Positions 24,101-64,000 of a stretch of 64,000 nt of DNA are shown here, in pieces. The notes beneath the pieces were generated by a model that worked only from the letters and a program-made list of their open reading frames with translations, was not told the origin of the DNA and did no database searches. The position numbers and the translations under genes were made by a program. The DNA is from a virus. Taxonomy: Duplodnaviria > Caudoviricetes. Position 1 is the stretch's first letter. Each line of letters begins with the position of its first letter. The stretch spans positions 2,733 through 66,732 of IMG/VR virus record IMGVR_UViG_3300028630_000010; one strand, given 5' to 3'.

Positions 24101-27100
24101 CCGATCATCTCTAAGGTGGCTTTCTCCTCGCCCTGAAGGGAGTCGAAGACGAAGCCCACGGCCTTGCCGAGATTTTCCTCGATGTTCTTCATGCCGGCGA
24201 GGTGGGGACTCTCGGAGAAGGTCTCCAGCGCGTTACGCCGGACGGCCTGCCGCTCCTTCTGCTCGCGGTACAGGGCGCGGGAGCGCTCCACCTCCGCCAT
24301 AAAGGCGTTGGCGAAGGTCTCCACATCGTCGAAGTTCAGCTCCTTCGCCAACTGGTCGATGTTGCCGCGGCTCTTCTTCTCGCCCAGCGCCGCCTTGGGG
24401 TACCGGAAAAATGCCTTCCGCTCGGCGAGATTGAACGCCTTGAGCCCGCCGGCCTCGGTGAACCAATCGTACTCGCCCTTCCTCCCGATGGCGCCCCGGG
24501 GGATGATGATCGGGCTGCCGCCCCGGATGTGGTCGAGGATGGGGAAGCCCACGGGGTCGTCGTTCTCAAGCTGCGCCTGCGTGCGCAGCTCTCCCACCCG
24601 CACGGGAGCGGAGATGTCGTCGTCCAGAGTGACGCCGGGAAGTTTGAAGCGGATGTCGGCCCGGGCGTCGTCGAAGCGGCGCGAAAGGGGGATCAGGTCG
24701 CCGTTGTCATCGTATGTGGCGGCGTCGGCGGACTTGATCTGCGAGGGCTTAAAGACGGCGTAAGTATCTGATCGCGCTCCATTCTCGAAGTTTTGAATGT
24801 TGCGAACGTGAACTCCATCTTTTCCTGCCTCGCGAGCGTCACGAATCCATCGTTCCATCACATCTGGTTCGTAAAGCTCGCCGTGTGCGTCCACTTCCGC
24901 AAAATTTCCCTTGAGCCATGCACGAACAGACGAGGTTGATCCTCTCGGATACGGAAACTGAACAGCTTCGTCTTTGGAATCGCTAAAGAAAATCGCTTCC
25001 TCTTTACCCTCACGACTTGTCCGAAACTCCGTGATTGGAGAAATGCTGCGAGTACCATGCCAGCCTTCCACATCATACCCCGCCGCCTTCGCCGCCTCGT
25101 CCACCATCCTCTGCGCGGTATCCATGTCGCCCCGCGACACGGCGTCGGCATGTTCGGCATCGAGCTTGACGCCGGGAAGTTTGAAGCGGGGTTGCCCCTG
25201 CATCACGGAGTCGCGCATGGCGGGGGTGATCGGGAGAGAGTGCGCAACCACCACATTCTTGTCATGATACGAAGTGGCATACCCTTCGCCCATAAGCCCG
25301 CGCTGGCGCATTACAGTATGCGCCTGCTCGGCGGTAGCGTACCTGTCCTGATTGACAGGAACGCCGTCGCGCAAAATCGCCCAACCGTCAACCTCGGCCC
25401 CCATTTTCACATCCTCCACCCGTGCCCCGAACTTCTTGCCGATGTCGTTTGCGATGGAGGGGAGTATCTGGTCGTAGAACGTCCTCATGCCCTCGCCGCC
25501 GACCTTGAGGTCGAGGCCGCGCAGGGTGAAGAAAGCCGGGTTGGAGGGGGCGGACTTGGGCCACGGCTTACCCTTGTTGCGGTCCGCGCCCTCGATGAGC
25601 TTGGCCGCTAAGTCTTTCCCGATGGTGTCTTCCATCTCGGCGGGGGTGAGCTTCTTGCCGGAGCGCGAGTACGGCGCGATCTCATCGCCCCGCATGTCCT
25701 CGATGATCAGGTTGTACGTCCCGTCTCCGTTGGATATGGCAGAGGCCATGCTGATATGCTTACTCAGGTCATACCGTTCCGCCTGCTGCTCGCCAGTGGT
25801 CCACGCTATTCTATCGAAGTTGTTCTCGGCCGCCCAGCGCAGCATCCGCTTGAACGCCAGCCGCGCCCAGCCCTTGCTGGTGTCCTTGAAGGGGGCGTCG
25901 GGAACGCCTTCGGCGGCTTTACTTATCGCCGCCTCCTTGGTGCCGCCGACGATCTTCGTAACCTCGTTGCCCTTGGCATCGTTTATTTGCCAATGGTTGA
26001 ATCCCGCATCCGGCGCAGAAAGCAGTCGAGCCGTCCACCCAGTAGTGTCTTTTGCGTACCCCTTCTTCTTGCCCTCCTGATGCCGGTCCGATTGAACCTC
26101 CTCCAAGAACAGGGTCTTGTCCCCGTTGGCGGCTTGCCTTTCATTGAAGCGGATATGTGCAAGGACGTTGGGTTCTTCCCAGTGGGAGGAACGGTATTGT
26201 TCCCCGACAGGCACATCTTGATAATATTCGGCCAAGTGCTGTTTGGCCTCGCTTTCATAATCGTACCCCTTGCCAACAGTGCGCCCCTTGTTATTGTCGA
26301 AAACCCACCAATACCCATTTTCTTCTACAAGGTAGTACCTTTCTCTGTTCGGCAGCGTCAGCAGAAGCTCCCGGTAGTTCTCGCCGCCGGGAAGCTGGTA
26401 CTGCTCAAATTTCGTGGCGTTGTCGAGGTCTTTCCCGATGCGCAAACGCCGCGCAAGCTGTTCATATCGGGCGTCTTGTTCAGGCGTCCTATCGCGCCCG
26501 AGTCGTGCAAGTGGCGTCAGCTCTTCCTGCATGTCAAGCTCCGCCTGCGTCTGCCCCTTCACCACCTCCCGGATCTCCACGTCCTTGGTCGCCTCCAGCA
26601 CCTCCGCCTTGGTCACATAGTCGCCGGGGTTCTTGCCGTCCAGAAAGTCCTTGAGGCCCGTCCACTCGATCTCGTCCGCCTTGACGCCGGAGCGGGACGG
26701 GTCGATCATGCCGCGCAGGGCCATGACGGTCATGCGGTTCGGCATCTTGGCCTCCAGCGTGCGCCGGAGCTGGCTGAAGAAGACAGGCTCGGCCGCTGCG
26801 TCGAGCTTCACCCCCGCCAGTTTGAACCTCGGGGCGTTTCTCGCCACAGCATCCTGCCCCCCGACCTTGGCCTCGTCCGAGACGATCTGCGTCGCCTGGA
26901 GGGCGGGATGAAGGGCGGCAAGATTCTTCAGCGCCGTGTTAGCTTCATCGACCCCCAGATAAGGGCCGGTCACATACCCCCGCGAATCCGGAGTGTCCCG
27001 CAGACGGCTTTCCGCCCCGGCCGCGCGCATGATCTCTGCCACGGTGATTTTTTTCGACTTGGATTTAGCGGGAGTGGCGATGCGGAACGCGAACACCGCC

Positions 27101-30100
27101 CCGGCCCCGATCTGATCGCCCGTGGTGCTGCTGTAGGTGGGGGTCACTTTCACACGGCCGGCATCGATTTCCAGCGCCCCGTCCCGCGCCACGGGGCGGA
27201 TATCCATCACATCCGTCACCTTCTCCAGCCGGGAGGAGACAATCTTCTTGGCGTTCGCAACCGTGACGCCGCGCGGCATCATCAGAACGAAGGAGGAGAA
27301 ATTCCCGTCGGCCGGGAGCGCCCGCACGATTTGAGAGGCGCCACTCGCGCCCGTCGCCACGATGTTGCCGATAAGCGCCTGCGCCACGTCCCCTGCGATG
27401 ATCGTCCGGTCTTCCTTGCGGGTGAGGGTCTCGTTGTAATTGCGCTCCGAACTTTTAGCCGCGTTGGAGAGGATCTTGTCGGCGAAGATCGACAGGGGGA
27501 TCGTGGTCACGCCGCGAATGGTGTTGAACGACACCTTGACGCGCCAGTCCGAAGCCGTCTGCGCCGTGCCGCTCGGGGGAAGGCGCGCCTCTATCGGGAC
27601 GAACCAGCGCCGCCCCCCGCCAACGTCGTCGCGGACATAGTACACCTGCCCGATACTGTCCAGAGCGCGCTCCAGCACCTGCGCCGTGTTGCCGTAAATC
27701 CGTTTCAGCCAGGGGTTGGAGGTGCCCGCAATCGCCTTGTCGATCTTGGCCTTTGCGTCATCCAACATCGTCGGATGCTTCGCCTGCCACGCTTGAGCCG
27801 CCGCTACCGCTTCGGAGGCGGTCAGAATCTTGCCCCGCCCGAGCACCGGCACCTCATAAGCACGCATCGCGGAGTCGGACAGAAGCTGCTCGACCGTCAG
27901 CGGCACGCGCCCGATGTCACCGGCCTCCAGATCGTGCAGCCCCGCCTCGCGGGCGTTATCCTGCAGCGCCGCCACCTTGGCCTGAATCTGACCGATAAAC
28001 TGCTCCTGCTCCCGCACAGGCAGAAACTGACTGATGGAGGTCGCCGCCCGGATCCCCGTCGATGGCCGCAGGGCGTTGATCGCGGCCACGACAGGATTGC
28101 GCTCCGCCGCCAGCTCCGCCAGCGCTTTGTCGCCGAATACGTTCATGAAATCGAGCGCGTCTTCGACCTCTTCGCCATACCCCGCCTTACTCACGCCGGA
28201 GGTGTTGGCAGAGAGGCTGCGTAACTTGCTCATGAGAATGGCCGCGTTGCGCTGCTCACCCGCCGCCGATGTGAAAACGAGATAGTAGATCGGCTTTGAG
28301 AGCTGGTTCTTGCGGTTCACACGGCCGAACATCTGCATCATCTCGTTGATGTCCCACGCGGGCTGCAGAACGAACAAGACGCGCTGCGCCTGATTGCGAA
28401 AATCACTACTGGCATGGGCGGAGAGCCCCGTAGACCCGGAGCTGCTCAAAACTAGCACCATGTTCGGGCTGCCGTCCGGCGCCCCCTGATTGAATTGGCG
28501 GATAACGGTGTCTGGGTTGGGCTTGATTCTGCGTACGACAACGCCGTTCTGAACCATGAGGGTGCGACCCGTCACCTCACCGAACTGGTACCCGGCGTTC
28601 TCCACGATCTCCCGCACCCGGTCAATGGGCGAGGCGGGGAGATTCTGCTCCCGAAGATAGTCGGCCGCGGACCGGGCCTCCCGCACAAGGGCGTCGGCCG
28701 CATCGCGCAGCATGGTGGCCTCCTGTGTCTTGACAAGCCGCACCAGCTCACCGAAGCCGGCGGGGGTCAGAATGGAGGCGCTGGAGCCGTCGGGCATCTG
28801 GATCGATACCGCCCGTTCGGAAATGCGCGTGAGATAGCGCCCCACGTCGGCCTTTTGCCCTAGACCGATCTCTGTCAAAAGCGCCTGATTGGTGTTGTAG
28901 AGCGTCACCACAGGGGCACGGCCCGCGCGAAGCTCCGCCACGGCCGCGTTTGCCACGGTCTCGGCCTTGAGCGCCGTGTAGATGAAGGATGCCGTATTGT
29001 GGAGGCTTGACATAAATGCCGCGCCGTCCATGTTCACGACGGGCGCTCCCTTCTGCAAGCGGGAGTTTACCGTCTTCACCATTCCGCCAAACCGTATGAC
29101 CGACCGCACCGCCTGGTTGAACACGTCCGCGATCTGCTCTTCACGTTGGGATAACGCCGTCCGCTCTTGCGGGGAGCCGAGGGTGTCAATGGTCGTCAGC
29201 TTCTCAAATATCACATTCTCGTAATCCAGCTCGTGCCGGACATAGAAACCCCGCTCAGTCAGCCGTGCTGCCAGATACTGCTGGAAGGGCACGCCGCCCA
29301 CCATCAGAGCCTTCTCCATGTCTTCGTCGTTCTTGAAGAATTGGGAGTAGCCCGCCCGTTTGTAGAGAGTCATGTTCTCGCCGCGCTTGGCGAAGGTGGC
29401 CGAAGAGAAGACCACGCCGGGCTTGGCCAGATCGGCGAACTCGCGCAGTACCGCGCCGCGGTTGGAATCCGCCCCCGCCGCAAGATGTGCCTCATCCATC
29501 ACCAGTGCCCCCTTGCCGGAAACAAGAAGTTTCTTGATGAGGTCGATTTTAAGCCGGGTGTTGGCGGTCGGGTTCTGCACCTGCGAGTAGGTCAAGAAAA
29601 TGGCGTTTGCCCCTTGCGGCAACTTGCCTTCCGACAGCGCCGAGTTCCGCCGAACGGGGGTGAAAAACACGGGCATGGAGAAGGCGTCTGCGTCTTCCGA
29701 ATCCGGGTCTTCGTTCTTTGGCGCCTTGTAATCGTTCATCACAAGGGGCTTGAAACGATCCTGTGCGCCGATGGCTGTGATATCGCGCCAGATGTCCGTA
29801 AACAGCTTGGCCTGCGCCGTGAGGAAGATCGGCACGCGCCCGTTCAGGATATGGTAATCCATGACTGATGCCATGACTCTTCCCTTGCCGGCACCTGTCT
29901 GGCTTCCAACGATAAAGCCCGTGCCCTCGTCGATCTTCTCCAGGGCGAGACCAAGGGTGTCGATCTGCGAGCCGTCCAGCTCCTTCTCGGTCATCGGGCG
30001 GCGCATTTTTTCGGCGACAAAGGTATCGATCCCCTCCGGATGGCGTTCATCGAATGAGATAAGGGCTGCAGCCATGCCGCCCGCCAGCTCGCGGGGCACC

Positions 30101-33100
30101 TTCATGGGGCTTGCGACCTTCACGGCGGAGAGGGGATCGTAATCGAGCTGCGCCTTGTCCTCCTCGGCGTCCATGTCAGTGGTACGGGCAGCGTTCCAAC
30201 GCGCCTCGAACGCCTCACGCAATGCCGGCCCCATAGAGTTGAAGCCGGTTCCCGTAACAAACCCGTTGGCCGGATTGGCGGCAAGGTGCTTGGCGATGGC
30301 GTCCGCCACCTTTATTCGGGCCTCGGCAATCTCCGCCGGCAGAGAAAGAATGTGGCGGGCGAGCTGATCGGGATTGTGTACCTTCCCGGCAAATTCCTTA
30401 TCCCAAATTTTCCCGTTGATCTTCATCATGAAGGGGTTAAGGGTGAGACCCGTTTCGGGTGTGACAAGCCCGAGCTCGATGTCTTGAGAGAGACGATAGC
30501 GGAGGGTCCCTGCGGCGCCCTCCTTCACGCGGGCAGCATTCACCTCGGCGCTCGACGCCTCGGCATTACCCTGTGCCTCTGCACGCGCCTGTTCCGCCTT
30601 GCCGGACAGGTCAAGGTTGTTCGCCACACGTTCGCCTAAAGTCTCCGCCCCCGGATCGTACATCTCCGCCACGGCGGCGCGGATATGCTCCCAGGTCGAA
30701 TAGCGGGCGGGAAGGTCGCGCATCGGCATGTGGGGGTTCATCTCGCTGCCGTCGGTCTTCTCCATGAGCAGGACTTCGACAGGGAAAGACGCCCCCATCT
30801 TGCGGTACAGTGCCCCGTCCGCGATGAAATGCAGCGTGGCCTTCCAGCCCCGCCGGTTCAGCTCCTGATGAAACTTGGCGAACGCCCCGGCGGTGTAGAC
30901 CCCCGCCAGCGCCCCGGTCGGCATTTTCATGGCGTTGCGCCCCGGAGCCGCCCCGATGAAGAACAGGGTGTCGCCCGGCACGGCGGATTCGATAGTCTTC
31001 AGCGCGATCTTGTGCTCCAGCTTGTAGCCGGACTCGTCCGCGGGGCCGAATGGGGGATTCATCAGGAAGGCGCGTTTGCCCTTGCTGGCCGCGTCTCTGA
31101 TCGCATTCTGGAACTCTTCGGCCCCATAGTCCCCTGTAAAAATATGCGCCGCCGTCCTCATCTCCTTTGTAAGGAAATCGGTCAGCCGTGAGGAGCGCCC
31201 CGCATCAAGTTCGTTCGCAAGGATCATGTCAGGGCTGCGCACAGTTGCAAGTAACCCCCCGTTGCCCGCCGTGGGTTCGACAATCGTCGCCCATTTTCCA
31301 TCTCGCGCGGTGCCCATCGCCGCCTCCGCTCCGATGGCGGCAAGCGGGGGCGGAGTGCTGTACGCCTGCCGCTCCTTTGAGTCGGCGGTGCGAGTAGCCG
31401 CTGCCTTGCGCGCCTCATAGGCGGGCAGCTCGACATCCATCACGGCCAGCGCCGGGGCGGCGGCATACTCGGCATCGGGGATCGCCCGAACCCGCGCCTG
31501 CGTCTCCGCATTGGCCTGCAACTCGGCGATCTCCTCGGCGTCCTTGGCGTCGGTGGGGTTGGCGCGTTTCTGATCTTCGGCGGATAGATTGGCAACAGGA
31601 GATTTGACCTCGACTTTCGGCTTTTGTCGTGATTTGTCCCGCTCTTGCCGTAATTTGTCCAACCTTGAAAGCTCTTCTTCACTCCACGCATCAACCTCAT
31701 ACCCGGCTGGTGTGGGAGGTTGCGGGGCCTCCTCGCGGCCTGCGGCACGCCGCAACACATCAACCTCGGCAAATCCGCCGTTTGTGAACGTAAAAGACCC
31801 GCCAACGGGGTCAATCTTGATCGCCTTGTTTTTCCGGTATGACGCCAGCGCGGTTTCGGCTTCCGGCTTGGTCAGCCCTGCGGTACGCATGGCGAAGTCG
31901 ATGAAGGCGTTTTCGGCGTTAACGATGCGCTGCGCGACGGCGCGCATTCCGGGGATAGTTTCTTGCGAAGCGGCGGGTGCCTTCGCCGCCTGCTCCTTGT
32001 CCCACTCCGCCTTTGCCGCGGCAACGCGCCTGCGGTAGGCGCCGGTGTTCTCGCCGTACTTGATCTTCGGGGGCTCGAATTGCGCCACGGCGGGGGCTGC
32101 TTCCTGCTCGGCCTGGGGGGCTGCCGGAGCGGCCTCGCCCTTCTCATCCGGCACGATCTCAAACTCCTCGCCCGTCCAGTTCGCGGTCTCGTCGGGGTGG
32201 GCTGCGACATAGCGCATCATCTCCTCTTCGGAGGCGAACTTCATCTTGGGGGCGGGGGCGGGCGGCTCGGCTTTGGGGGCCTCGGTTTTCGGAGCCTCAA
32301 CGGGCTTCGCTTCGGCTGTCGGAGCACTGTCGGATGCTGTCGGAACGGCCGGTTTCGCCCCCTCCTTGTGCCGGTTGGAGAGCTTCTGGTTGTGGGTCGC
32401 CCACTCCGTGACACCCCACTTCTCGCTGCCTTCGGGGGCCTTCCCGCCGCCGATGATCCGCACGGCGCTGACGGTCTCGGACGCGCCCTTGACGCGCATG
32501 AGCGCCGCCATCCCGTTCAGCACCTTCCCGTGATGGTCGCTGGACACGTAGAACACCTTGGCGTTCCCGCGCTTGCTCTGACGCAGATACGTGCGCTTCC
32601 CGCCGACCGAGACGCCGGGGATCTCTACGTACTCGCCACCCCGCTTGAAGCGGCCCGAACCTTGCCTCGGTACACGGTGAAACTCCACCTCGGCATTCTT
32701 CTCGGCTATCTCCACAGCACGCTTTTGAAGTCCTTCGCCTTCGGGCTTCCCACCCGTTCCGGCAGCTTCTGATCCTTGGGCGTCTCCGCCTCCATCTTTT
32801 TCAGCACCTCCGGCTTGTTCTCCGCCAGCCACTTTCTCTGCGCCTCGCTCTTGATCGGCATTCTGTACCTCCTTGGGTTTCTGATTCAGCAGCTCCAGAT
32901 CATCCGGAGCCACGCCCTCCATGCCCGGCAAGGGCGGGGTGCTGTCGCCCAGATCGCCCTTCAGCGGCGCGGCGGCCTTCTTAGCGATCTCGTCCCGCTC
33001 CTCCTGCTTCTTGCGCTGCGCCTCGACCTTCGCCTTCTCCGCCTCGATCTCGGCGGGGGTGCCGCCTTCGAGGACGAGGGGCACGGCAGGGGCCTCCCCC

Positions 33101-36100
33101 TGCCCCGCTTCAGAGGTGGGCACAATCGGAGCCCCGTCGCTCTTTGCGGGTGCAGGGGGAGGCACGATCTCGAAATTCTCTTCGGTCCAGTTAGCCGTCT
33201 CCTCCGGATGCGCCTCCACATACTCCAGCATCGCCTCTTCACTGGGGAAGGTCATCTTCGCCGCGGGGGTTGCCGGGGCGGGGGGCTCGGATTTGGGAGC
33301 TTCGGCTTTGGGCGCTTCAGGGGGTGTCTCGACCGGCGCCGCCTCCTCCACGGGAGCTTTGGCCTTTTGCTTCGCTTCAAAGGCCGCTTTGATGTCCTTT
33401 GCCGCCGCTACCGCCTCGGGAGACGGAGCTGCGGGGGGTTTCGCTTCGGAAGCCGCGACTGGTGGCACCGTCTCTGCGCCGGGGGCTTCCTCCCCTTGTG
33501 CGGGCATAGCTTCGGGCGCGGCCTCTCCTGCGGGCTCTACGGCCTCTTTCTCGCCGGTCTCGGTCCCGGCTGCCGCAATCGGGTCTCCGGTAAATGCCGG
33601 GGCGGGCACTTTCCACGCATCCGGCCCGCCGTACAGATCGACTTTTGCCTCACGCCCGCTGTACATGATCAAAGCCACCGCCCGGCGCACATCCCGCATG
33701 TTCTTGGCGCTCTTGTCCTTGCCGCGCAGCAATGTGACCAAGCCGTCGCCAAACCGCTTGCGGAACAGGGGTGTCATCCTCTCCTGCTGCATCGACAGGA
33801 CTTCCCCCACGGCACCGGCATCCGTCAGCTTGACACCCCGAGCGGCATAGTCCGCCCTCACCGATTCCACCGCCTTGACAAACTTCTCCAGCCCGCCCGC
33901 GCCGGGGGCGATGATCTTCGCCTTCTGGAACTCCGCCGCGATCCAGTTGACCGTCTTTCCGGCCATGAGCTTCGTCAGGCCCGCCTCATCCGCCACGCTA
34001 TGCCCGGTCTCATGCTTCACATTGTACACCAGATCGTCGAAGGAGGTGATCGCCGCGACGTTCAGGACAATCGTGCCGTTGGGGGCGGTCAGGGCGGGAT
34101 TGCCGGATTTGTACTCTGCCTCGTCCGCGCCTTCTGCCACCGCCGCCGCCTTCATGTCCTTGTCGCTCTGCACCAGCACCACGTTGCGGCCGGGGGCGAA
34201 CACCTGGGCGACCCGCGTGGCGATCTCGGCCCGCTTCTCCATGTGAAGCTGCCGCCCCTGCTTCGTCTGGCTCATCTTCTCCGCGCCCTTTTGAGCCTCC
34301 TCCGCCGTGTTGAACGTCATGGGGGAGAGCACGCCGTCCCGATCGCGCACAGTGATCGCCGTACCTTCCAGCGTGGAGGTATAGTCCACCGAGAAACCAG
34401 ACTTTTCATCATCGACCGTAGCCGCGCCGTTCGCCGCCTCTTTCGCCACATCGACAGAGAAGTTGGGCTTGATCCCCTCGCCCGTGCGCATGAACAACTC
34501 AGAATCAATCGCCCGCTGCGCGGATAGGGAGAGCCACTCGCCTGCGTCTTTGAACACCTCGGCGTACTTGTCCCGGTTGGCCTCCGCCTCATAGAAGGCG
34601 ACGAACGCCTTGTATTTCCGCTCGTCCGACATATAGGCGAGCTCGGCGTTGGTGTGGCCCGCCGCCATCAAGTACGTGTCGATAATGTGGCGCCCCCTTT
34701 TTGTCTGCACCGCGTGCATCGCACCGCCGCCCAAGGTGAGGAGATACTGAAGGGCGAACCCCTCGGCAAGCGCCGTCAGGTTCTCCCACGATACGAACCC
34801 CTTATTGACGCCATCACCCCATGCAAACTCCCTGGTCTTCTCCCCGATCGTCATCTGCCGGGTGCCGGCCACGGCGTAGCCGCTCTTCTCCCCGTAGCGG
34901 GCGAGCATGCGCTTGGCCGTCCGCTCTTCATCCGAGCCGGGCTCCACCCGCATCTGCTCTATCTCGCCCGTCGCCTCGTTAAACACGTTCTTGACGTAGA
35001 CAGGCACCTCGGTGTCGGAAGGGCGCTGCGCGAACACGGCATCCCCCCACTGCTGAATGCCCTCCTCCCCCAAGAGTTCGGTAAAGGGATTATTCGTTGC
35101 CGACAGCCCGGCTATCCGCAGAACCCCTTTTGCGAACTCGGCGATACCCCTCCCGATGCGGGTCTTTAACACCTGTCTGGCCAGGGCATCGTACCCCTTA
35201 GAGGCCCCTTTGCTAATACGCCCGCCAGTCAGTAGCTTATCGGCTCCTTTGAAGACCGCTCCGAGAATCTTATCCAGCAGAACCTCCGTCGCCGCTTCAA
35301 ACGCCCCATAAGCGTAGCCGCGCAGCCGGGCGTCGTCGTAGTCCGTGCCCGCCTTCTCCACTTTGCCCGTGTCCGGGTTGATGTCGGCCGACAGAAGCTT
35401 GGTGGTCTTGTCCACACCGGACACAGCCCCCCCAAGCACCCCCGAACCTATCATCGCGGCGGTCTTAACCCCCGCCGCCGTCAGTCCTGCCGCTCCCGCA
35501 ATGCCGCCGGTCAAAGCGCTACCGACCAAGAACGTGTTGCCGGAGCCCACCGCGGGCATGCCCTTAGCCACCAGCACCCCCGCCTTCTCAAGAAACCCAA
35601 GAAACCCGCCGGTGTTCCCCGCCAGCTCCTCGCGCAAGGCAAGCTCCTCCTTCGCCATTTCCATGATCTGCGCCCTCGCCATGGCGCTCGACTTCGCCGC
35701 CGCGTAGATCGCCTCTGCGCGGGTGCGGGCGTCCAGCGGGGCCTCGGGGGTGTCGTACTGGTTCACCAGATCGATAATCTCCTTGGGAACGGAGGCGTCC
35801 TGCTCCGCGCGGGTCATGTCCTCGATCTTTTTGAAGGTGCGCAAGTTGGGGCGGGGCACGCCCGCCATACCTGTAGCGATCTGCGCTCCGATATCTCTCG
35901 TGTCCCCGACCTCCAGCTCCTGTCTGGCCGCAATGCGGCTGACAAGGGCGTCATTGCGTCTGCGAATCGCCCCACCCGCATGGGCGTATTGATAAAACGC
36001 CGCTTTCAGCCCGAACCCCTCCACATTGCCTTCCGGCGTCATGCGGTTGGCTTCTTCGGGGTCGCCGCTTTCCGCCAACTTCATCAGCGTGGAGTAGCTG

Positions 36101-36351
36101 GGGAAGTTCAGGGGGTTGGTCAGGCGCCGCGCCACGATGGGGTCTTCGGGGGTCATGCCGTGATAGGCCGCCCATTTCTTGATGCGCTCGTACTCCTTCG
36201 GGTCGGCCAGCTTCGCCCGAAAGGCGGAGAGGGGACCTCCGGCAGCCGGCGCGGCTTGATCAACAAGTGTCACCCCCTCAAAGTCGGCAAATGGATCGCT
36301 CGCGGCTTCGACCAGTTTCACGCCCTCGAACCCCTCGAAAAGATCGTTCAT
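21157..36351 (-). CDS. 5064-aa polyvalent virion/ejection protein (HExxH motif, N6-adenine MTase, Strawberry-notch helicase, LPD-like and ART-like domains)
   Basis: HETGH (34000-34014); EPTAGNG and NPPF; GSQTGAGKGR, DEAH and QMFGRVNR; LFLEEVQSD domain; WHGT...FFS...VFKPSQIKS. Confidence 0.9.
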   Translation of the reverse strand: MNDLFEGFEGVKLVEAASDPFADFEGVTLVDQAAPAAGGPLSAFRAKLADPKEYERIKKWAAYHGMTPEDPIVARRLTNPLNFPSYSTLMKLAESGDPEEANRMTPEGNVEGFGLKAAFYQYAHAGGAIRRRNDALVSRIAARQELEVGDTRDIGAQIATGMAGVPRPNLRTFKKIEDMTRAEQDASVPKEIIDLVNQYDTPEAPLDARTRAEAIYAAAKSSAMARAQIMEMAKEELALREELAGNTGGFLGFLEKAGVLVAKGMPAVGSGNTFLVGSALTGGIAGAAGLTAAGVKTAAMIGSGVLGGAVSGVDKTTKLLSADINPDTGKVEKAGTDYDDARLRGYAYGAFEAATEVLLDKILGAVFKGADKLLTGGRISKGASKGYDALARQVLKTRIGRGIAEFAKGVLRIAGLSATNNPFTELLGEEGIQQWGDAVFAQRPSDTEVPVYVKNVFNEATGEIEQMRVEPGSDEERTAKRMLARYGEKSGYAVAGTRQMTIGEKTREFAWGDGVNKGFVSWENLTALAEGFALQYLLTLGGGAMHAVQTKRGRHIIDTYLMAAGHTNAELAYMSDERKYKAFVAFYEAEANRDKYAEVFKDAGEWLSLSAQRAIDSELFMRTGEGIKPNFSVDVAKEAANGAATVDDEKSGFSVDYTSTLEGTAITVRDRDGVLSPMTFNTAEEAQKGAEKMSQTKQGRQLHMEKRAEIATRVAQVFAPGRNVVLVQSDKDMKAAAVAEGADEAEYKSGNPALTAPNGTIVLNVAAITSFDDLVYNVKHETGHSVADEAGLTKLMAGKTVNWIAAEFQKAKIIAPGAGGLEKFVKAVESVRADYAARGVKLTDAGAVGEVLSMQQERMTPLFRKRFGDGLVTLLRGKDKSAKNMRDVRRAVALIMYSGREAKVDLYGGPDAWKVPAPAFTGDPIAAAGTETGEKEAVEPAGEAAPEAMPAQGEEAPGAETVPPVAASEAKPPAAPSPEAVAAAKDIKAAFEAKQKAKAPVEEAAPVETPPEAPKAEAPKSEPPAPATPAAKMTFPSEEAMLEYVEAHPEETANWTEENFEIVPPPAPAKSDGAPIVPTSEAGQGEAPAVPLVLEGGTPAEIEAEKAKVEAQRKKQEERDEIAKKAAAPLKGDLGDSTPPLPGMEGVAPDDLELLNQKPKEVQNADQERGAEKVAGGEQAGGAEKDGGGDAQGSEAAGTGGKPEGEGLQKRAVEIAEKNAEVEFHRVPRQGSGRFKRGGEYVEIPGVSVGGKRTYLRQSKRGNAKVFYVSSDHHGKVLNGMAALMRVKGASETVSAVRIIGGGKAPEGSEKWGVTEWATHNQKLSNRHKEGAKPAVPTASDSAPTAEAKPVEAPKTEAPKAEPPAPAPKMKFASEEEMMRYVAAHPDETANWTGEEFEIVPDEKGEAAPAAPQAEQEAAPAVAQFEPPKIKYGENTGAYRRRVAAAKAEWDKEQAAKAPAASQETIPGMRAVAQRIVNAENAFIDFAMRTAGLTKPEAETALASYRKNKAIKIDPVGGSFTFTNGGFAEVDVLRRAAGREEAPQPPTPAGYEVDAWSEEELSRLDKLRQERDKSRQKPKVEVKSPVANLSAEDQKRANPTDAKDAEEIAELQANAETQARVRAIPDAEYAAAPALAVMDVELPAYEARKAAATRTADSKERQAYSTPPPLAAIGAEAAMGTARDGKWATIVEPTAGNGGLLATVRSPDMILANELDAGRSSRLTDFLTKEMRTAAHIFTGDYGAEEFQNAIRDAASKGKRAFLMNPPFGPADESGYKLEHKIALKTIESAVPGDTLFFIGAAPGRNAMKMPTGALAGVYTAGAFAKFHQELNRRGWKATLHFIADGALYRKMGASFPVEVLLMEKTDGSEMNPHMPMRDLPARYSTWEHIRAAVAEMYDPGAETLGERVANNLDLSGKAEQARAEAQGNAEASSAEVNAARVKEGAAGTLRYRLSQDIELGLVTPETGLTLNPFMMKINGKIWDKEFAGKVHNPDQLARHILSLPAEIAEARIKVADAIAKHLAANPANGFVTGTGFNSMGPALREAFEARWNAARTTDMDAEEDKAQLDYDPLSAVKVASPMKVPRELAGGMAAALISFDERHPEGIDTFVAEKMRRPMTEKELDGSQIDTLGLALEKIDEGTGFIVGSQTGAGKGRVMASVMDYHILNGRVPIFLTAQAKLFTDIWRDITAIGAQDRFKPLVMNDYKAPKNEDPDSEDADAFSMPVFFTPVRRNSALSEGKLPQGANAIFLTYSQVQNPTANTRLKIDLIKKLLVSGKGALVMDEAHLAAGADSNRGAVLREFADLAKPGVVFSSATFAKRGENMTLYKRAGYSQFFKNDEDMEKALMVGGVPFQQYLAARLTERGFYVRHELDYENVIFEKLTTIDTLGSPQERTALSQREEQIADVFNQAVRSVIRFGGMVKTVNSRLQKGAPVVNMDGAAFMSSLHNTASFIYTALKAETVANAAVAELRAGRAPVVTLYNTNQALLTEIGLGQKADVGRYLTRISERAVSIQMPDGSSASILTPAGFGELVRLVKTQEATMLRDAADALVREARSAADYLREQNLPASPIDRVREIVENAGYQFGEVTGRTLMVQNGVVVRRIKPNPDTVIRQFNQGAPDGSPNMVLVLSSSGSTGLSAHASSDFRNQAQRVLFVLQPAWDINEMMQMFGRVNRKNQLSKPIYYLVFTSAAGEQRNAAILMSKLRSLSANTSGVSKAGYGEEVEDALDFMNVFGDKALAELAAERNPVVAAINALRPSTGIRAATSISQFLPVREQEQFIGQIQAKVAALQDNAREAGLHDLEAGDIGRVPLTVEQLLSDSAMRAYEVPVLGRGKILTASEAVAAAQAWQAKHPTMLDDAKAKIDKAIAGTSNPWLKRIYGNTAQVLERALDSIGQVYYVRDDVGGGRRWFVPIEARLPPSGTAQTASDWRVKVSFNTIRGVTTIPLSIFADKILSNAAKSSERNYNETLTRKEDRTIIAGDVAQALIGNIVATGASGASQIVRALPADGNFSSFVLMMPRGVTVANAKKIVSSRLEKVTDVMDIRPVARDGALEIDAGRVKVTPTYSSTTGDQIGAGAVFAFRIATPAKSKSKKITVAEIMRAAGAESRLRDTPDSRGYVTGPYLGVDEANTALKNLAALHPALQATQIVSDEAKVGGQDAVARNAPRFKLAGVKLDAAAEPVFFSQLRRTLEAKMPNRMTVMALRGMIDPSRSGVKADEIEWTGLKDFLDGKNPGDYVTKAEVLEATKDVEIREVVKGQTQAELDMQEELTPLARLGRDRTPEQDARYEQLARRLRIGKDLDNATKFEQYQLPGGENYRELLLTLPNRERYYLVEENGYWWVFDNNKGRTVGKGYDYESEAKQHLAEYYQDVPVGEQYRSSHWEEPNVLAHIRFNERQAANGDKTLFLEEVQSDRHQEGKKKGYAKDTTGWTARLLSAPDAGFNHWQINDAKGNEVTKIVGGTKEAAISKAAEGVPDAPFKDTSKGWARLAFKRMLRWAAENNFDRIAWTTGEQQAERYDLSKHISMASAISNGDGTYNLIIEDMRGDEIAPYSRSGKKLTPAEMEDTIGKDLAAKLIEGADRNKGKPWPKSAPSNPAFFTLRGLDLKVGGEGMRTFYDQILPSIANDIGKKFGARVEDVKMGAEVDGWAILRDGVPVNQDRYATAEQAHTVMRQRGLMGEGYATSYHDKNVVVAHSLPITPAMRDSVMQGQPRFKLPGVKLDAEHADAVSRGDMDTAQRMVDEAAKAAGYDVEGWHGTRSISPITEFRTSREGKEEAIFFSDSKDEAVQFPYPRGSTSSVRAWLKGNFAEVDAHGELYEPDVMERWIRDAREAGKDGVHVRNIQNFENGARSDTYAVFKPSQIKSADAATYDDNGDLIPLSRRFDDARADIRFKLPGVTLDDDISAPVRVGELRTQAQLENDDPVGFPILDHIRGGSPIIIPRGAIGRKGEYDWFTEAGGLKAFNLAERKAFFRYPKAALGEKKSRGNIDQLAKELNFDDVETFANAFMAEVERSRALYREQKERQAVRRNALETFSESPHLAGMKNIEENLGKAVGFVFDSLQGEEKATLEMIGEREGTDAVRDYILRQHIDLVALDMIERHAFQMEVESGARDEAPPIIQDRGTLAIDTPVNEKGDTRPVFDQTKESLDVKRARLYAQALQGVPTITDEAAAAHVREALDVGGKLFLRDIAQKLTAERLTGATTRPLDKLQTAIMLWYQTDLDERAKDSDRQAQAAVEAHDLNNLNAVDMMRDSLNRETIDYLNAARQYGSLAGQALQALKLRVDHAFDIVKIYRQAREDIGRELTRAEFEKLKARIDILEKKWNDYVDAATLPDGEGELDTRVVELEKKLADVTAARAAVKTEVDRLEAKKAALEAEYAKQSREATAFSEKKAQLEAQIAGIENEIALREALNQQVEELQGKVDALQAKLDALDAEYAGASPELLASLEKQLADLTKLHAEKLAAYQKTDEELKTANERLKRVRKLIEKLGKGTKAKIARRRAVIENAANLYKEFKAEMERAQVERLKARWRSAPLPKKALMAFEGVENIIQGLQSMVDESVAGRQLIKIGRAHPIMWARAFAQSQHIVFHRSGMTDDTGRTLTWQERSDRYYYELDQAQREDPLFDILVRKGGLDWMDITADPTSFDEQQIPVGPLLNNMLPSKATRFVTSVLGVSNNHYAGMSNLLRFTVAKQLYNQMSVAKGETPNEDDIYAIVSTVDIFGGRGDMSTQTARAVIDFGRHLLYSPRLALANAQYYRRMFGMLANPRYSRQARKMILMEYVRSGIGYATLSFIARVLSWLLYDDKDQQRFQFRSGHPAYTQLMFGQQRVDITGGQATWDRAAMNFLGGGLIDLLPEWARDVISVIDNGDKLATETGLVITEQYKREKGDYAALGRFARSKLKPLTGMFIDLARGKNYEGQAAGPRAQPHQPGYDRRYLNLLRSIAPVPLSLQTAGELYMGDPDQGIEPVRNPFLFVNWMSMELLGMLARSLPINAELAQQVAEGYTKNAEELESLKRKQRDIMNDRKMSPEMKELEAGRIQDKLDRLRGM
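24630..24652. repeat. 23-bp direct repeat flanking the ART-like domain, copy A
   Basis: TGACGCCGGGAAGTTTGAAGCGG, identical at 25167-25189. Confidence 0.9.
25167..25189. repeat. 23-bp direct repeat flanking the ART-like domain, copy B
   Basis: Identical to 24630-24652; offset 537 bp (179 codons). Confidence 0.9.
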
Positions 36352-58907: not shown

Positions 58908-58943
58908 CCCTAGATGTTGTGGAAGTTGACAATTCGACGCAAT

Positions 58944-58977
58944 TAAAACGGGCGGCATGCTAGTAGCACGCCGCCCG
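58944..58977 (-). terminator. intrinsic terminator downstream of tad2
   Basis: Stem CGGGCGGC/GCCGCCCG extended by TGCTA/TAGCA, followed by TTTTAATT on the minus strand. Confidence 0.7.
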
Positions 58978-59057
58978 CAAGGATAATCGGTTCGCCGAAA
59001 CGCTTAAGGAGACACATTGAAACGAAGGCGCGACAATAACACAGTCGGGTGCGGGTG

Positions 59058-59333
59058 TCAACCCTCGACCACAACCCAGTCATCGGCAAGGATGTCGGTC
59101 TGGCTGGCAAGCCAGGGGACAAAGCCGTTGTCGGCGGTGTGCATGCCAATGTAGGGCATAAGGGTGCCGCTGTCCACGCCATCGACGGGGCCGTTCTCGC
59201 GGACAGAAAACTCAGCGTCGGTGTAGGGGTTGACGTGGCGGAGCCACATGCCCTTGCCGTTCCAGCCCTGCCGTGCAACGCGCTTGCCCTGTTTGAGCAA
59301 CTGAAGCGCCCATCCGAAGTTCCGTTCTTCCAT
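59058..59333 (-). CDS. tad2: DUF2829 / Thoeris anti-defence Tad2-family protein
   Basis: NFGWALQLLKQGKRVARQGWNGKGMWL...PWLASQTDILADDW is the family signature. Confidence 0.85.
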   Translation of the reverse strand: MEERNFGWALQLLKQGKRVARQGWNGKGMWLRHVNPYTDAEFSVRENGPVDGVDSGTLMPYIGMHTADNGFVPWLASQTDILADDWVVVEG

Positions 59334-59398
59334 TTTGTCACCTCACACCCCTTTTGTTGCACCAAGCCGCTCGGGGCGGCACGGCTTGGCGTATGCTT

Positions 59399-61120
59399 TC
59401 AGCACAACGCCTCTTCCCCGCCGTCCCCCGCCCTCTGCCATGCCGGAACGTACAAGGAGCCATCGCGGACATAGCCGCGCCCGGTCGCCTCGGCCAACTT
59501 CATCTGATCCCCGCCCCAGCGGGCGCCGCAGCACATGTACTCGAAGGCGTCGGCGATATGAGAGTGGGCGTTCTTCGCCGGTTCGTCCGTGTTCATGTAC
59601 TCCGCGCCGATCTTGCGCCGCCCCCAGACATAGCCGCCGCCTATCGACCGGATAAGCGTGGTGCAGCCGGGGTCGATCTGCACCGCCCCCTTGTTGTTGA
59701 TGATGCGGTTCAAGAAGTGCCGCACCGCCTCAAGGCGCGTGCCGATGTCGTTGTTCGGCAGCCGGGCCGGGGGAACTGCGTCAAATCCGCAGCCCCGCAT
59801 AAGCAGAATGCCGCCCAGCGGAGAGTGCTCCGAGCGGTTCAACGCCGCCGGGTCGCAGTAGAGGGTAAGATCAGTGATCGAAAAGCCATGCGCCGCCAGC
59901 ATGGGGCGCAGGACGTTGTTGGCGAAGGTCTCCACGCTCCCCGTCGGGTCTACAGCCTCGGCGAACACATTCAGCCGACCGTCGGAGCCCATATAGCCCA
60001 GCACCGCGCGGCGGGTCTGTCCGAAGTCCATGCCGCCTATCAAACGGGTGCCGGGGGCCGGCCAGGGCACGCCGTTCTTCGCCACATGCCACCTCTCGGC
60101 GAAGTCGCTGAAAACCGGATCTCCCACCTCCGTCTTGCTGTAGAGGCAGCACACGTAGCGGTCAACATGCTCAGAGCCGGAGGTGTCGATGATGTTCTGG
60201 TAGTAGTCCCAGTGCTCGTTGAGATGCTCGATATTCTCCGCCGGGGGGATGCCCGGCCGCTGCCCCTCGTTCAACTCGTACCTCCACTTCTCGAGCTCGT
60301 CATCCCACACCTTGAACGCCGCCGGGGGCTGCTCGAAGTACACCTCCTTCTCCGGATTGGCCCCGCCGTCGCGCGATTTCTTGTACCACCATGAGTCTTC
60401 AGAGGCGGCATTCGTGTCCATGTCGACCCCGTGGTTCTTGAAGTAGTGCCAATATCCCTTGTTGTCCTGCCACGCCACCGGAAGCTCCTTGAAGTTGGGC
60501 GGGGCCATCGACAGATCAGGATAGCGCCCGCAGCGGCCGACCACCGCGTCCTTCGCCTTCTCCGAGATCGTCGTGGCCTCGTTGATCATCCCCCCGCTGA
60601 AGTTGTTGGAAAGCAGATTGCCCAGCGCCCCCGCCTTGTCCAGACCGAACCCCCGCAGCTCGAGAATATGCCTCACCCCGCCCTTCGTCTGCTCCAACGT
60701 ACCGAACACACCGTACTTCGAGCCCGTCATCCGCGTCCGGGGAAACATCGCCATCCAGGTGTCAACCAGCGTCGCCTTCAACAACGTCAGGGTGCCGCGC
60801 ACCATCGAGAACCTGTCCCGCACCACGCCGTCACGGCACGGATACTGCCGCAGGTGGCGCATGTTCATGTCCGCGGCCATGCCAACTGTCTTGCCGCTGC
60901 CAACCGGCCCCATCACACCGCGCACCAGCCGCTCCTCCCTGTGCAGCAGCTCCATCGTCCGGCTCGGGTAGTAGGTCAGATCCCGCCCCTTCCGGTACTC
61001 CTCCCACCGCTTCAACAGCGTCTCGTCACTCAGGCCCTCGTCATCGCCCGAAGCAACCCGGCGCCCAATGTCCGCCTCAAGATCGTCCAGCGCCTCGGCA
61101 TAAGATGTGTCCCGCCCCAT
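59399..61120 (-). CDS. terL: terminase large subunit
   Basis: Walker A GPVGSGKT, Walker B region MINEA, nuclease motifs GMDFG and HSHIADAFEY. Confidence 0.92.
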   Translation of the reverse strand: MGRDTSYAEALDDLEADIGRRVASGDDEGLSDETLLKRWEEYRKGRDLTYYPSRTMELLHREERLVRGVMGPVGSGKTVGMAADMNMRHLRQYPCRDGVVRDRFSMVRGTLTLLKATLVDTWMAMFPRTRMTGSKYGVFGTLEQTKGGVRHILELRGFGLDKAGALGNLLSNNFSGGMINEATTISEKAKDAVVGRCGRYPDLSMAPPNFKELPVAWQDNKGYWHYFKNHGVDMDTNAASEDSWWYKKSRDGGANPEKEVYFEQPPAAFKVWDDELEKWRYELNEGQRPGIPPAENIEHLNEHWDYYQNIIDTSGSEHVDRYVCCLYSKTEVGDPVFSDFAERWHVAKNGVPWPAPGTRLIGGMDFGQTRRAVLGYMGSDGRLNVFAEAVDPTGSVETFANNVLRPMLAAHGFSITDLTLYCDPAALNRSEHSPLGGILLMRGCGFDAVPPARLPNNDIGTRLEAVRHFLNRIINNKGAVQIDPGCTTLIRSIGGGYVWGRRKIGAEYMNTDEPAKNAHSHIADAFEYMCCGARWGGDQMKLAEATGRGYVRDGSLYVPAWQRAGDGGEEALC

Positions 61121-62266: not shown

Positions 62267-62659
62267 ACTGCCCTCCTTGCCCTTTCGCCGCGATATATTA
62301 CCTCTCCCACGCCCCCTTTACAACCCTTTTTTTTCACCCCGCCCCTCTTCATGTCCTCTGCGCCGCCTCTGAATTATCAGAACGTTTGCCCCTCACATCA
62401 CAGGGGAGGGAGCGAAAGGGGTCCCCCCGTTCCCAACCGCCGCCCCCCTCCGCGGCGGAGTCCCAGTCCCCCCATAGGGCGGGGTCGGCGGGTCGGCGGG
62501 GTGTGGGGGGGTGAGGGGCTAGCTGCGAGCGTGCAGCGTGCGCGGCGCGCGATCCGCGAGCAAACGTGTGCAGGTGATAGGCGCACATTATGACGGCGAA
62601 ATCGCGTCGCATAATATACATTATGTAAAATAGGTGTTGTGGTCAGGGTGGGTCGCGAC

Positions 62660-63003
62660 GGCGAACGGTTCGCCGAGGGGTCGTGGCGAACGGGTCGCCG
62701 AGGGGTCGAGGCGAACGGGTCGCCGAGGGGTCGAGGCGAACGGGTCGCCGACAGGGGCTCGACGGCGAACGGGTCGCCGACAGGGGCTCGACGGCGAACG
62801 GGTCGCCGACAGGGGCTCGACGGCGAACGGGTCGCCGACAGGGGCTCGACGGCGAACGGGTCGCCGAGGGGTCGTGGCGAACGGTTCGCCGAGGGGTCGT
62901 GGCGAACGGTTCGCCGAGGGGTCGAGGCGAACGGGTCGCCGAGGGGTCGTGGCGAACGGGTCGCCGAGGGGTCGTGGCGAACGGGTCGCCGAGGGGTCGT
63001 GGC
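62660..63003. repeat. 13-unit tandem hairpin repeat array (9 x 25 bp, 4 x 29 bp)
   Basis: Core GGCGAACGG(G/T)TCGCCGA plus linker GGGGTCG(T/A) or CAGGGGCTCGAC. Confidence 0.95.
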
Positions 63004-63005
63004 TG

Positions 63006-63167
63006 GTTTCAATTCACGCGCCCCGCGTGGGGCGCGTCCGACTATGCGGATATAGTATATTAGAGGTCGGTTTCAATTCACGCGTCCCGCGTGGGGCGCG
63101 ACAGGTTCTTCGAATCCGACAATATCGCGAACCTGTTTCAATTCACGCGTCCCGCGTGGGGCGCGTC
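63006..63167 (-). CRISPR. orphan type I-C CRISPR mini-array (3 x 33-bp repeats; spacers of 31 and 32 bp)
   Basis: Repeats at 63006-63038, 63070-63102 and 63135-63167. The minus-strand repeat GTCGCGCCCCACGCGGGACGCGTGAATTGAAAC has the I-C hairpin and ATTGAAAC end. No cas genes in the window. Confidence 0.9.
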
Positions 63168-63406
63168 GAGGGGAGAGGCGGCTACACTTCGCGCGGGCGG
63201 GCGCGGGCGCGCGGTTCAGGGCGGCGGGGAGGGAGCGAAACAACTCCCCTTTCTCTGCGTTTTTTTGATCCCCGCGTTGCGCGACTCACGCGCGAAAATT
63301 ATGCGAAAAAAAAATTTTTTTGCGGATGGTGCACCATGGGGAAAATTCGCAAAAACCCCAATAAAATAGGGGTTTTTGGGGGATAAAAAAAATTTGCGTG
63401 AGGGGG

Positions 63407-63435
63407 TTGACAGATGAACGGGGATATATTATATT
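63407..63435 (+). promoter_or_regulatory. strong sigma70-type (early) promoter
   Basis: TTGACA-N17-TATATT preceded by A/T tracts (UP-like). Confidence 0.85.
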
Positions 63436-63530
63436 AGATGCAAATGGGGCGCATACCGCGCCCCACCCAGACAACAACAACACCGCGCCCGCCCGTGGGC
63501 ATCGTACGCGGGCAGAAAGGAGAGCGAAAG

Positions 63531-64000
<470 letters not shown>

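Follow-up and report, generated by a model that had tools for sequence, protein, structure and literature searches.

A degenerate type I-C mini-array with a hairpin-expanded spacer on a phage of Kiritimatiellia

The presence of a CRISPR array on a phage that encodes no Cas protein raises the question of what, if anything, the array does: whether it blunts the immunity of the host, borrows it against other phages, or persists as junk. Such an array was examined here in the window, the whole 64,000-nucleotide stretch analyzed, which forms the final 64,000 bases of a 66,732-bp viral contig. The original prediction described an orphan type I-C mini-array at 63006-63167 and proposed that the host has a type I-C system which the phage exploits or jams. 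An orphan type I-C mini-array on a phage and a type I-C system in its host were both strongly supported by the comparisons described below; the claim that the phage exploits or jams the system was not borne out in the same way. No spacer was found to have a usable target.

Repeats and inserts of the array

The array contains three 33-nt direct repeats within window 63006-63167, separated by spacers of 31 and 32 nt, with the minus strand as the crRNA sense. The repeats differ from one another at 1-2 positions and each is 1-2 bases off their own consensus. The coordinates given for them in the original prediction proved exact and its limit of two differences held. The left limit did not, since the feature runs on to 62647 and takes in an expanded spacer and a truncated fourth repeat. 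The features of the region are listed below in order of position (L171, L178, L179 and L180 being further contigs that bear the array).

62612-62624, minus strand: third copy of an AT box, facing the terminase operon and without a -35 element
62647-62659, minus strand: R0 stump, the fourth repeat at the trailer end, recognized by alignment with L179 and L180, which have a full repeat at the same position
62660-63005, minus strand: S0, a tandemly expanded spacer of 346 nt with 13 units of 25/29 nt, found with TRF and a repeat finder
63006-63038, minus strand: R1, with T2A, the sole repeat with its stem intact
63039-63069, minus strand: S1, 31 nt, with 4-nt inverted-repeat ends, missing from L179 and L180
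63070-63102, minus strand: R2, with G18A, which breaks the C7-G18 stem pair
63103-63134, minus strand: S2, 32 nt, its ends forming an inverted repeat of 6 nt, lacking in L180 but shared by the window, L171, L178 and L179
63135-63167, minus strand: R3, with T2A and G18A, leader-proximal, identical across all five array-bearing contigs
63168-63239, no strand assigned: GC-rich block of 72 nt adjoining R3, part of the phage-family backbone (95.5% in the array-less relative L138)
63350-63376, no strand assigned: terminator-like hairpin, possibly bidirectional, between the array side and the early promoter, with a minus-strand site at 63371-63356 flagged by program
63407-63435, plus strand: early promoter, TTGACA-N17-TATATT, T-type allele, matching the S1 core at only 16 of 17 positions

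Read on the minus strand, each phage repeat is identical to bacterial type I-C repeats at 31-32 of 33 positions and ends in ATTGAAAC, a trait of the type I-C consensus with its palindromic core, and the array aligns with the archetypal Dvulg arrays on Nitratidesulfovibrio vulgaris plasmids. The repeat consensus is identical to that of an array in a Kiritimatiellia MAG (L030), which was found among 120 bacterial loci fetched by a degenerate pattern, and 10 repeats in G397, a genome from the class Kiritimatiellia, share the same sequence. The phage element is a genuine, host-derived type I-C mini-array in degenerate form. Like canonical type I-C (Dvulg) arrays, such as those of N. vulgaris pDV1, the host contig L139 and G397, it has the repeat (31-32/33), the orientation and the 11-nt handle; unlike them, it has no adjacent cas genes or homologous leader, its repeats are not uniform, its spacers belong to the short tail of the length distribution, and these number only two to three.

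The uniformity expected of repeats in a type I-C array is lacking, each phage repeat carrying a rare variant. Both variants pointed out in the original prediction were confirmed, namely the GAC start in R1 and R3, seen in none of 2,084 bacterial repeats of the type I-C repeat family, and the stem-breaking A at position 18 in R2 and R3, seen in 4 copies (0.2%) of the same set; all three phage repeats thus bear variants that are rare or unseen there. Copies of R0 in relatives disrupt other stem pairs (C7A in L179; C5A together with G18A in L180), and in the window R0 is reduced to 1 + 12 nt, having lost 20 nt that are retained in the full R0 of L179 and L180. The last 12 nt, made up of the 11-nt handle and one further base, are unaltered in every full repeat copy.

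The inserts are also atypical. Each S0 unit contains a 5-bp hairpin, and in the crRNA sense the initial 10 nt of the repeat are duplicated at the start of the 29-nt units. As like units sit between two full repeats in L179 and L180, the 13 hairpin units are a third spacer, expanded by tandem duplication. Neither S1 nor S2 has the usual type I-C spacer length of 33-36 nt, and lengths of 31 and 32 nt account for 0.16% and 2.5%, respectively, of 1,910 natural spacers. With the neighboring repeat bases included, their inverted-repeat ends extend to 5 bp in S1 and 8 bp in S2. Such ends reach at least 4 nt in 7 of 2,110 natural spacers and at least 6 nt in none, and the chance of finding them on both S1 and S2 is about 10^-6. 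Rfam returned nothing relevant, and neither the hairpin unit nor the phage repeat variant was found on other viral contigs in IMG/VR. The idea that the hairpin unit is a repeat element of the host, or belongs to another CRISPR type, was rejected as four host genomes gave only scattered noise with two mismatches.

The phage genome and the immunity of its host

The first 126 nt of the contig are an exact copy of nt 66566-66691, an overlap of the contig ends that breaks off only within a 9-nt tandem repeat, and the independent contig L171 crosses the junction of the ends. The phage genome is therefore complete, at ~66.6 kb. The tandem repeat lies in the first early gene (DUF7666), at window 63946-63995 and at the contig start (L004:1-170), and differs between the contig ends and in L171, which explains why the contig was not taken for circular. 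Homologues of this early gene number over 1,200 in the ENA and Logan assemblies with phages of the family. No Cas family was detected among the 59 ORFs of the phage (Pfam), and six-frame searches of the phage for Cas8c, Cas5d and Cas7 gave nothing, confirming that the 64 kb hold no cas genes. A 5,064-aa ORF (window 21157-36351, minus strand), which spans a quarter of the window, was excluded from the family scans as too long, leaving the six-frame Cas searches as its sole coverage. As the genome is complete and Cas-free, the concern that cas genes might lie just outside the window could be excluded.

The phage encodes a large terminase and a portal-like protein; its structural genes occupy the minus strand and those for replication the plus strand. 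No integrase family was seen in it. A search of IMG/VR with TerL found no relatives. In the window the terminase gene (59399-61120, minus strand) encodes 573 aa and is intein-free; in most close relatives the terminase reaches 707 aa through 134 aa inserted at window 60899/60900, an insertion that is in some cases flagged as an intein (PF14890). The stretch separating the terminase gene from the portal gene, window 58943-59365 (minus strand), is a variable accessory slot, occupied in relatives by an Acb2/Tad1-hairpin protein (PF24729) or a dGTP_diPhyd_N protein and in the window by a 140-aa ORF of no known family, a candidate anti-defense gene.

The host of this phage is a Kiritimatiellia bacterium. 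Scanning of JGI metagenomes with a 19-nt core of S1 led to the host contig L139, which has 133 repeats one loop base off the phage consensus, an array adjoined by Cas2, Cas1, Cas4 and Cas3, and dozens of spacers matching the window phage or its relatives. G397 contains 70 copies of the L139-type repeat in addition to the 10 copies equal to the phage consensus, a leader nearly the same as that of L139, and the operon cas3-cas5d-cas8c-cas7-X-cas4-cas1-cas2. The type I-C system predicted for the host was thereby found, with the same repeat, a cas operon and about 30 phage-matching spacers. From these spacers the arrays of L139 and G397 yield 32 matching sites on the phage (≤5 mismatches), seven of which are perfect, four of these seven with an intact GTC PAM, and 10-45% of host-array spacers target the phage family. 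On the 5' side, the protospacer flank reads GTC in 24 of 38 cases, GTN in 31 and GGG in none, which confirms the orientation of the crRNA and gives GTC/GTN as the empirical PAM of this Kiritimatiellia type I-C system. The textbook type I-C PAM is TTC and differs from the GTC seen here.

Two further elements were seen in Kiritimatiellia. A crRNA-like, stand-alone, CreR-like gene (L168:11000-11115, minus strand) occupies the cas3-cas5d intergenic region of G397 and consists of a TTGTCA-N17-TATATT promoter, a degenerate repeat hairpin, an exact 12-nt handle, a spacer-like part of ~25 nt, of which 10 nt match the host array leader, and a terminator. In G328, another Kiritimatiellia genome, an orphan mini-array of two repeats with the phage-consensus repeat and a 31-nt spacer lies at L170:5922-6018, with no evident cas2 alongside.

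Seven sibling phages with a G-type allele (L128, L137, L138, L140, L141, L143 and L144) have an early-promoter -10 region that coincides exactly with the 19-nt core of S1. The match to relatives covers only 19 of 31 nt, and in the fragments of sibling genomes searched no sampled sibling matched the flanks, with mismatches at positions 1-3 (the seed) and 23-31 and no adjacent GTN PAM. No exact or near-exact protospacer for S1, S2 or S0 was found in IMG/VR, in GenBank phages or in any fetched locus. Beyond the S1 core, the JGI metagenomes contained no protospacer, 151 Kiritimatiellia genomes contained none for S2, and S2 and S0 matched nothing anywhere searched, including the sibling fragments. 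Comparison of the spacers with viral databases yielded a full-length target for none of them.

Several partial matches were considered and set aside. A TTC PAM next to an 11-nt S2 seed in L141 was judged to be chance, because it falls in the end of a gene that is not conserved there and the host uses GTC as its PAM. Self-targeting by S1 was rejected because the promoter of the phage itself matches at only 19 of 31 positions and has no PAM, and S1 was rejected as an active promoter because its box has no -35 element and is missing from L179 and L180. Host spacer sp76 of L139 covers the same early promoter in the opposite orientation to S1, so S1 was not copied from it.

Natural variants, the slot and its flanks

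Five contigs carry the array (the window contig, L171, L178, L179 and L180), the last three having been found with a spurious ORF across the array region as protein query. The variants, with S0 only, S0 and S2, or S0, S1 and S2, come from contigs of at least three other samples, and several phage lineages carry the element. L178, at 99% identity to the window, contains 12 hairpin units. In the crRNA sense, L179 runs through the GC block, R3, S2, R2, two hairpin units (29 + 33 nt = 62 nt) and an intact R0, and L180 through R3, 205 nt of hairpin units and R0. The number of hairpin units ranges from 2 to 13 across the variants, and what all five contigs have in common is a repeat, hairpin units and a repeat, with S1 and S2 being optional. 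An assembly artifact was ruled out, since two independent ENA contigs, L171 and L178, have the identical array and L179 and L180 have variants of it.

In the distant relatives L128, L130, L132 and L138, unrelated sequence fills the array slot. L138, which has no array, carries there (L138:880-1030) a purine-rich tandem repeat with GAGGAGAATGA-like units, and the slot is on this account regarded as a tandem-repeat hot spot. Window 63070-63239 is identical in L179, yet the flanks diverge by only 2-3%, and R3 with the GC block is identical in L180, yet the GC block is conserved backbone. Once the flanks had been taken into account, purifying selection on R2-S2-R3 was rated less strong than at first, and sequence conservation of the array, then only weakly significant, is weak evidence. 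The GC block was also considered as imported host DNA or as a conserved element specific to the array, both of which were ruled out by its presence in the array-less L138.

An AT-rich stretch lies on the leader side of the array at about 63280-63400, as predicted, and comparison showed no homology between the leader side of the phage and the host leader. The plus-strand terminator (a hairpin followed by a T run) is a reading of the sequence by eye and belongs to the backbone also found in array-less relatives. The early promoter of the seven G-type siblings follows the form TTGACR-N17-TATATT, and within the family the -10 region of this promoter occurs as two alleles, G-type and T-type (window 63407-63443; L128:2823-2853; L137, L138, L140, L141, L143, L144, L172, L179 and L180). 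At the first variable site the five contigs with the array are all T-type, and the T-type alleles of the window, L179 and L180 mismatch the S1 core. The AT box ATAWWKTATATTA occurs in three copies in 64 kb (62612-62624, 63050-63062 and 63424-63436), all in one intergenic region, with 0 expected by chance. No sigma-70-type promoter was called in the crRNA sense of the array, no acr gene was recognized near it, and its neighbor genes belong to no known family except DUF7666.

Possible roles of the array

Because the host targets the phage so heavily, the array is more likely to blunt or borrow host immunity than to be junk, and with 32 sites of the host type I-C system on the phage, seven of them perfect and four of those with the GTC PAM, a counter-measure would pay. 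The reading tentatively favored here is that of a decoy or competitor, a crRNA mimic directed against host type I-C. Under this model, a fragment of a host type I-C array would have settled in a hypervariable intergenic slot of a Kiritimatiellia phage lineage and would be transcribed leftward, in the crRNA sense; we infer this transcription and its strand, as well as Cas binding and any inhibition that follows. The transcript would present several exact copies of the 11-nt 5' handle, on which host Cas5d, Cas7 and Cas8c could assemble; with weak repeat stems, spacers able to close on themselves and a long pseudo-spacer full of hairpins, the resulting complexes would be poorly processed or guide nothing. 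Cas subunits would in this way be drawn off the many phage-matching host crRNAs. This reading is preferred in view of the heavy targeting by the host, the intact handles beside weakened stems, the rare repeat variants, the short spacers with their inverted-repeat ends, the repeat-hairpin-repeat core common to the five contigs and the absence of full spacer targets; Racrs and crRNA-like arrays of viruses, two-spacer type I-C arrays among them, are on record (PMC10651486; bioRxiv 10.1101/2024.10.29.618823). However, no clear promoter is present in the crRNA sense and no acr gene is recognized nearby, and the phage has no integrase, while a decoy made after infection cannot disarm Cascade that is already loaded. 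Furthermore, plain decay would account just as well for the truncation, deletions and point changes, and conservation is only weakly significant once the flanks are properly measured.

RNA anti-CRISPRs (Racrs), which include RacrIC1 for type I-C (Camara-Wilpert et al. 2023, PMC10651486), each consist of a solitary repeat unit, in many cases beside acr genes (within about 1 kb), with a promoter directly upstream (PMC10651486). The phage element resembles them as a repeat mimic close to the host repeat, on a phage targeted by the host system, and in having altered repeats with the potential for aberrant Cas complexes. Unlike a Racr, it is not solitary, with three full repeats in 162 bp and three to four repeats with spacer-sized inserts, and it has no recognized acr gene or clear promoter. 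SRUFinder discards full matches within 100 bp as arrays (PMC10651486), and by this rule of the Racr authors three repeats within 100 bp are an array and not a solitary unit, which also counts against the decoy.

The rival that survives best, although it is unlikely, is that host Cas5d processes the transcript and that Cascade-Cas3 carrying S1 or S2 destroys co-infecting siblings, as a form of superinfection exclusion. Virus-borne mini-CRISPR arrays take part in interviral conflicts (Medvedeva et al. 2019, PMC6858448; review PMC11656645), which provides a precedent, and the phage array shares with them one to three spacers, host-matching repeats, a virus without cas genes, and one spacer from the genome of a close relative at a site where the carrier differs. 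The S1 core corresponds to the -10 region of G-type siblings and is mismatched by all array-bearing phages, which are T-type; the handles are intact, the spacer lengths are near normal, and the series S0, S0+S2, S0+S1+S2 could mean gain at the leader end. However, unlike interviral mini-arrays, the phage array has no full-length protospacer in sampled relatives. S1 mismatches the sampled siblings in its seed and at positions 23-31, with no adjoining GTN PAM, S2 and S0 are without any match, and S1 is dispensable, as seen in L179 and L180. The rare stem-breaking repeats, the short spacers with inverted-repeat ends and the one spacer expanded to 13 hairpin units further set the array apart; broken stems and inverted-repeat spacer ends are unexpected in guides, and the phage leader side shows no relationship to that of the host. 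What is atypical in the repeats and spacers leans toward jamming or decay rather than ordinary guiding.

Next in rank, and likewise doubtful, is a functionless piece of host array that recombination brought in and that now drifts in a slot open to any insert. The slot is indeed hypervariable, with the purine-rich tandem repeat in L138 and other sequence in L128 and L132, and the changes seen within the element are those of decay: R0 is truncated, R1-S1 or S1 and S2 are missing in relatives, the units vary from 2 to 13, and the stems carry point changes. Neither promoter nor targets were found, and a captured spacer derived from the phage family would be unsurprising given that 10-45% of host-array spacers target this family. 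This reading does not account for the inverted-repeat ends on both spacers, at about 10^-6 by chance, nor for the zero substitutions in any handle, and the element persists where the adjoining right flank differs by ~12%, in a slot that otherwise turns over.

A role independent of Cas proteins seems decidedly improbable. It could take the form of a plus-strand RNA antisense to host repeats, or of a string of hairpins acting at the DNA or RNA level, either to terminate transcription or insulate the early operon from the divergent late one, or as a signal for packaging or replication. Consistent with such a role, the plus strand folds far more stably (z -6.7 vs -2.4), a terminator-like hairpin follows the array on that strand, S1 bears a promoter -10 box in the plus orientation, and the element adjoins the terminase operon. 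The box in S1 has no -35 element, which is found in every early promoter of the family, and is missing from L179 and L180, the plus-strand terminator is backbone of array-less relatives, and relatives manage without the element; the strict retention of the handle would also be left unexplained.

The least probable reading, and a very improbable one, is regulatory. Cracr arrays are viral and crRNA-like, with nine two-spacer arrays reported against type I-C and competition with host crRNAs proposed (Liu et al., bioRxiv 10.1101/2024.10.29.618823), and by partial pairing the phage array would take host Cascade to a host promoter (of the cas operon, the CRISPR leader or a safeguarding toxin) for silencing without cleavage. 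It has the degenerate repeats with two spacer-like inserts on a phage that make up the two-spacer type I-C layout, with three such repeats (bioRxiv 10.1101/2024.10.29.618823), the host has the CreR-like gene between cas3 and cas5d, and in both L139 and G397 the 9 nt that open S2 recur in the host CRISPR leader, in the interval from its putative -35 to its putative -10 element. This site, the sole 9-nt seed hit, has GGG at the PAM position, a triplet found at 0 of 38 protospacers, and PAM-flanked seed matches in host loci are at chance level (20 seen vs about 17 expected). Unlike in Cracr arrays, the defining match to a host CreR/CreA spacer or cas promoter (≥9 PAM-proximal bp) was looked for at the host locus and not found, S0, S1 and S2 sharing at most two PAM-proximal bases with the host CreR-like spacer where 9 are required.

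The phage array lacks the defining feature of each functional subclass tested, and a crRNA-mimic decoy remains the reading preferred here. A cas-less CRISPR array on a phage is of a known kind; the hairpin-expanded pseudo-spacer is unusual, and it could represent an RNA anti-CRISPR architecture of its own, composed of the parts that all five contigs share, an exact type I-C handle, a hairpin run of 62-346 nt and a second repeat, although we consider this improbable. Cascade assembly would nucleate on the handle and Cas7, at one subunit per 6 nt, would polymerize along an over-long, non-guiding pseudo-spacer, so that its capacity would grow with the tandem units, from 2 up to 13, and S1 and S2 would be later additions. 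Phage-borne cas-less arrays are known, and their function is settled in only a few cases. To our knowledge, none has been described from Kiritimatiellia or from a virulent-looking phage. With a complete phage genome, the host type I-C locus and its arrays, the GTC PAM and five natural variants in hand, the exploiting, jamming and relic readings are directly testable. If the hairpin-expanded pseudo-spacer does act as a sponge for Cas proteins, it would constitute a third architecture among RNA anti-CRISPRs.
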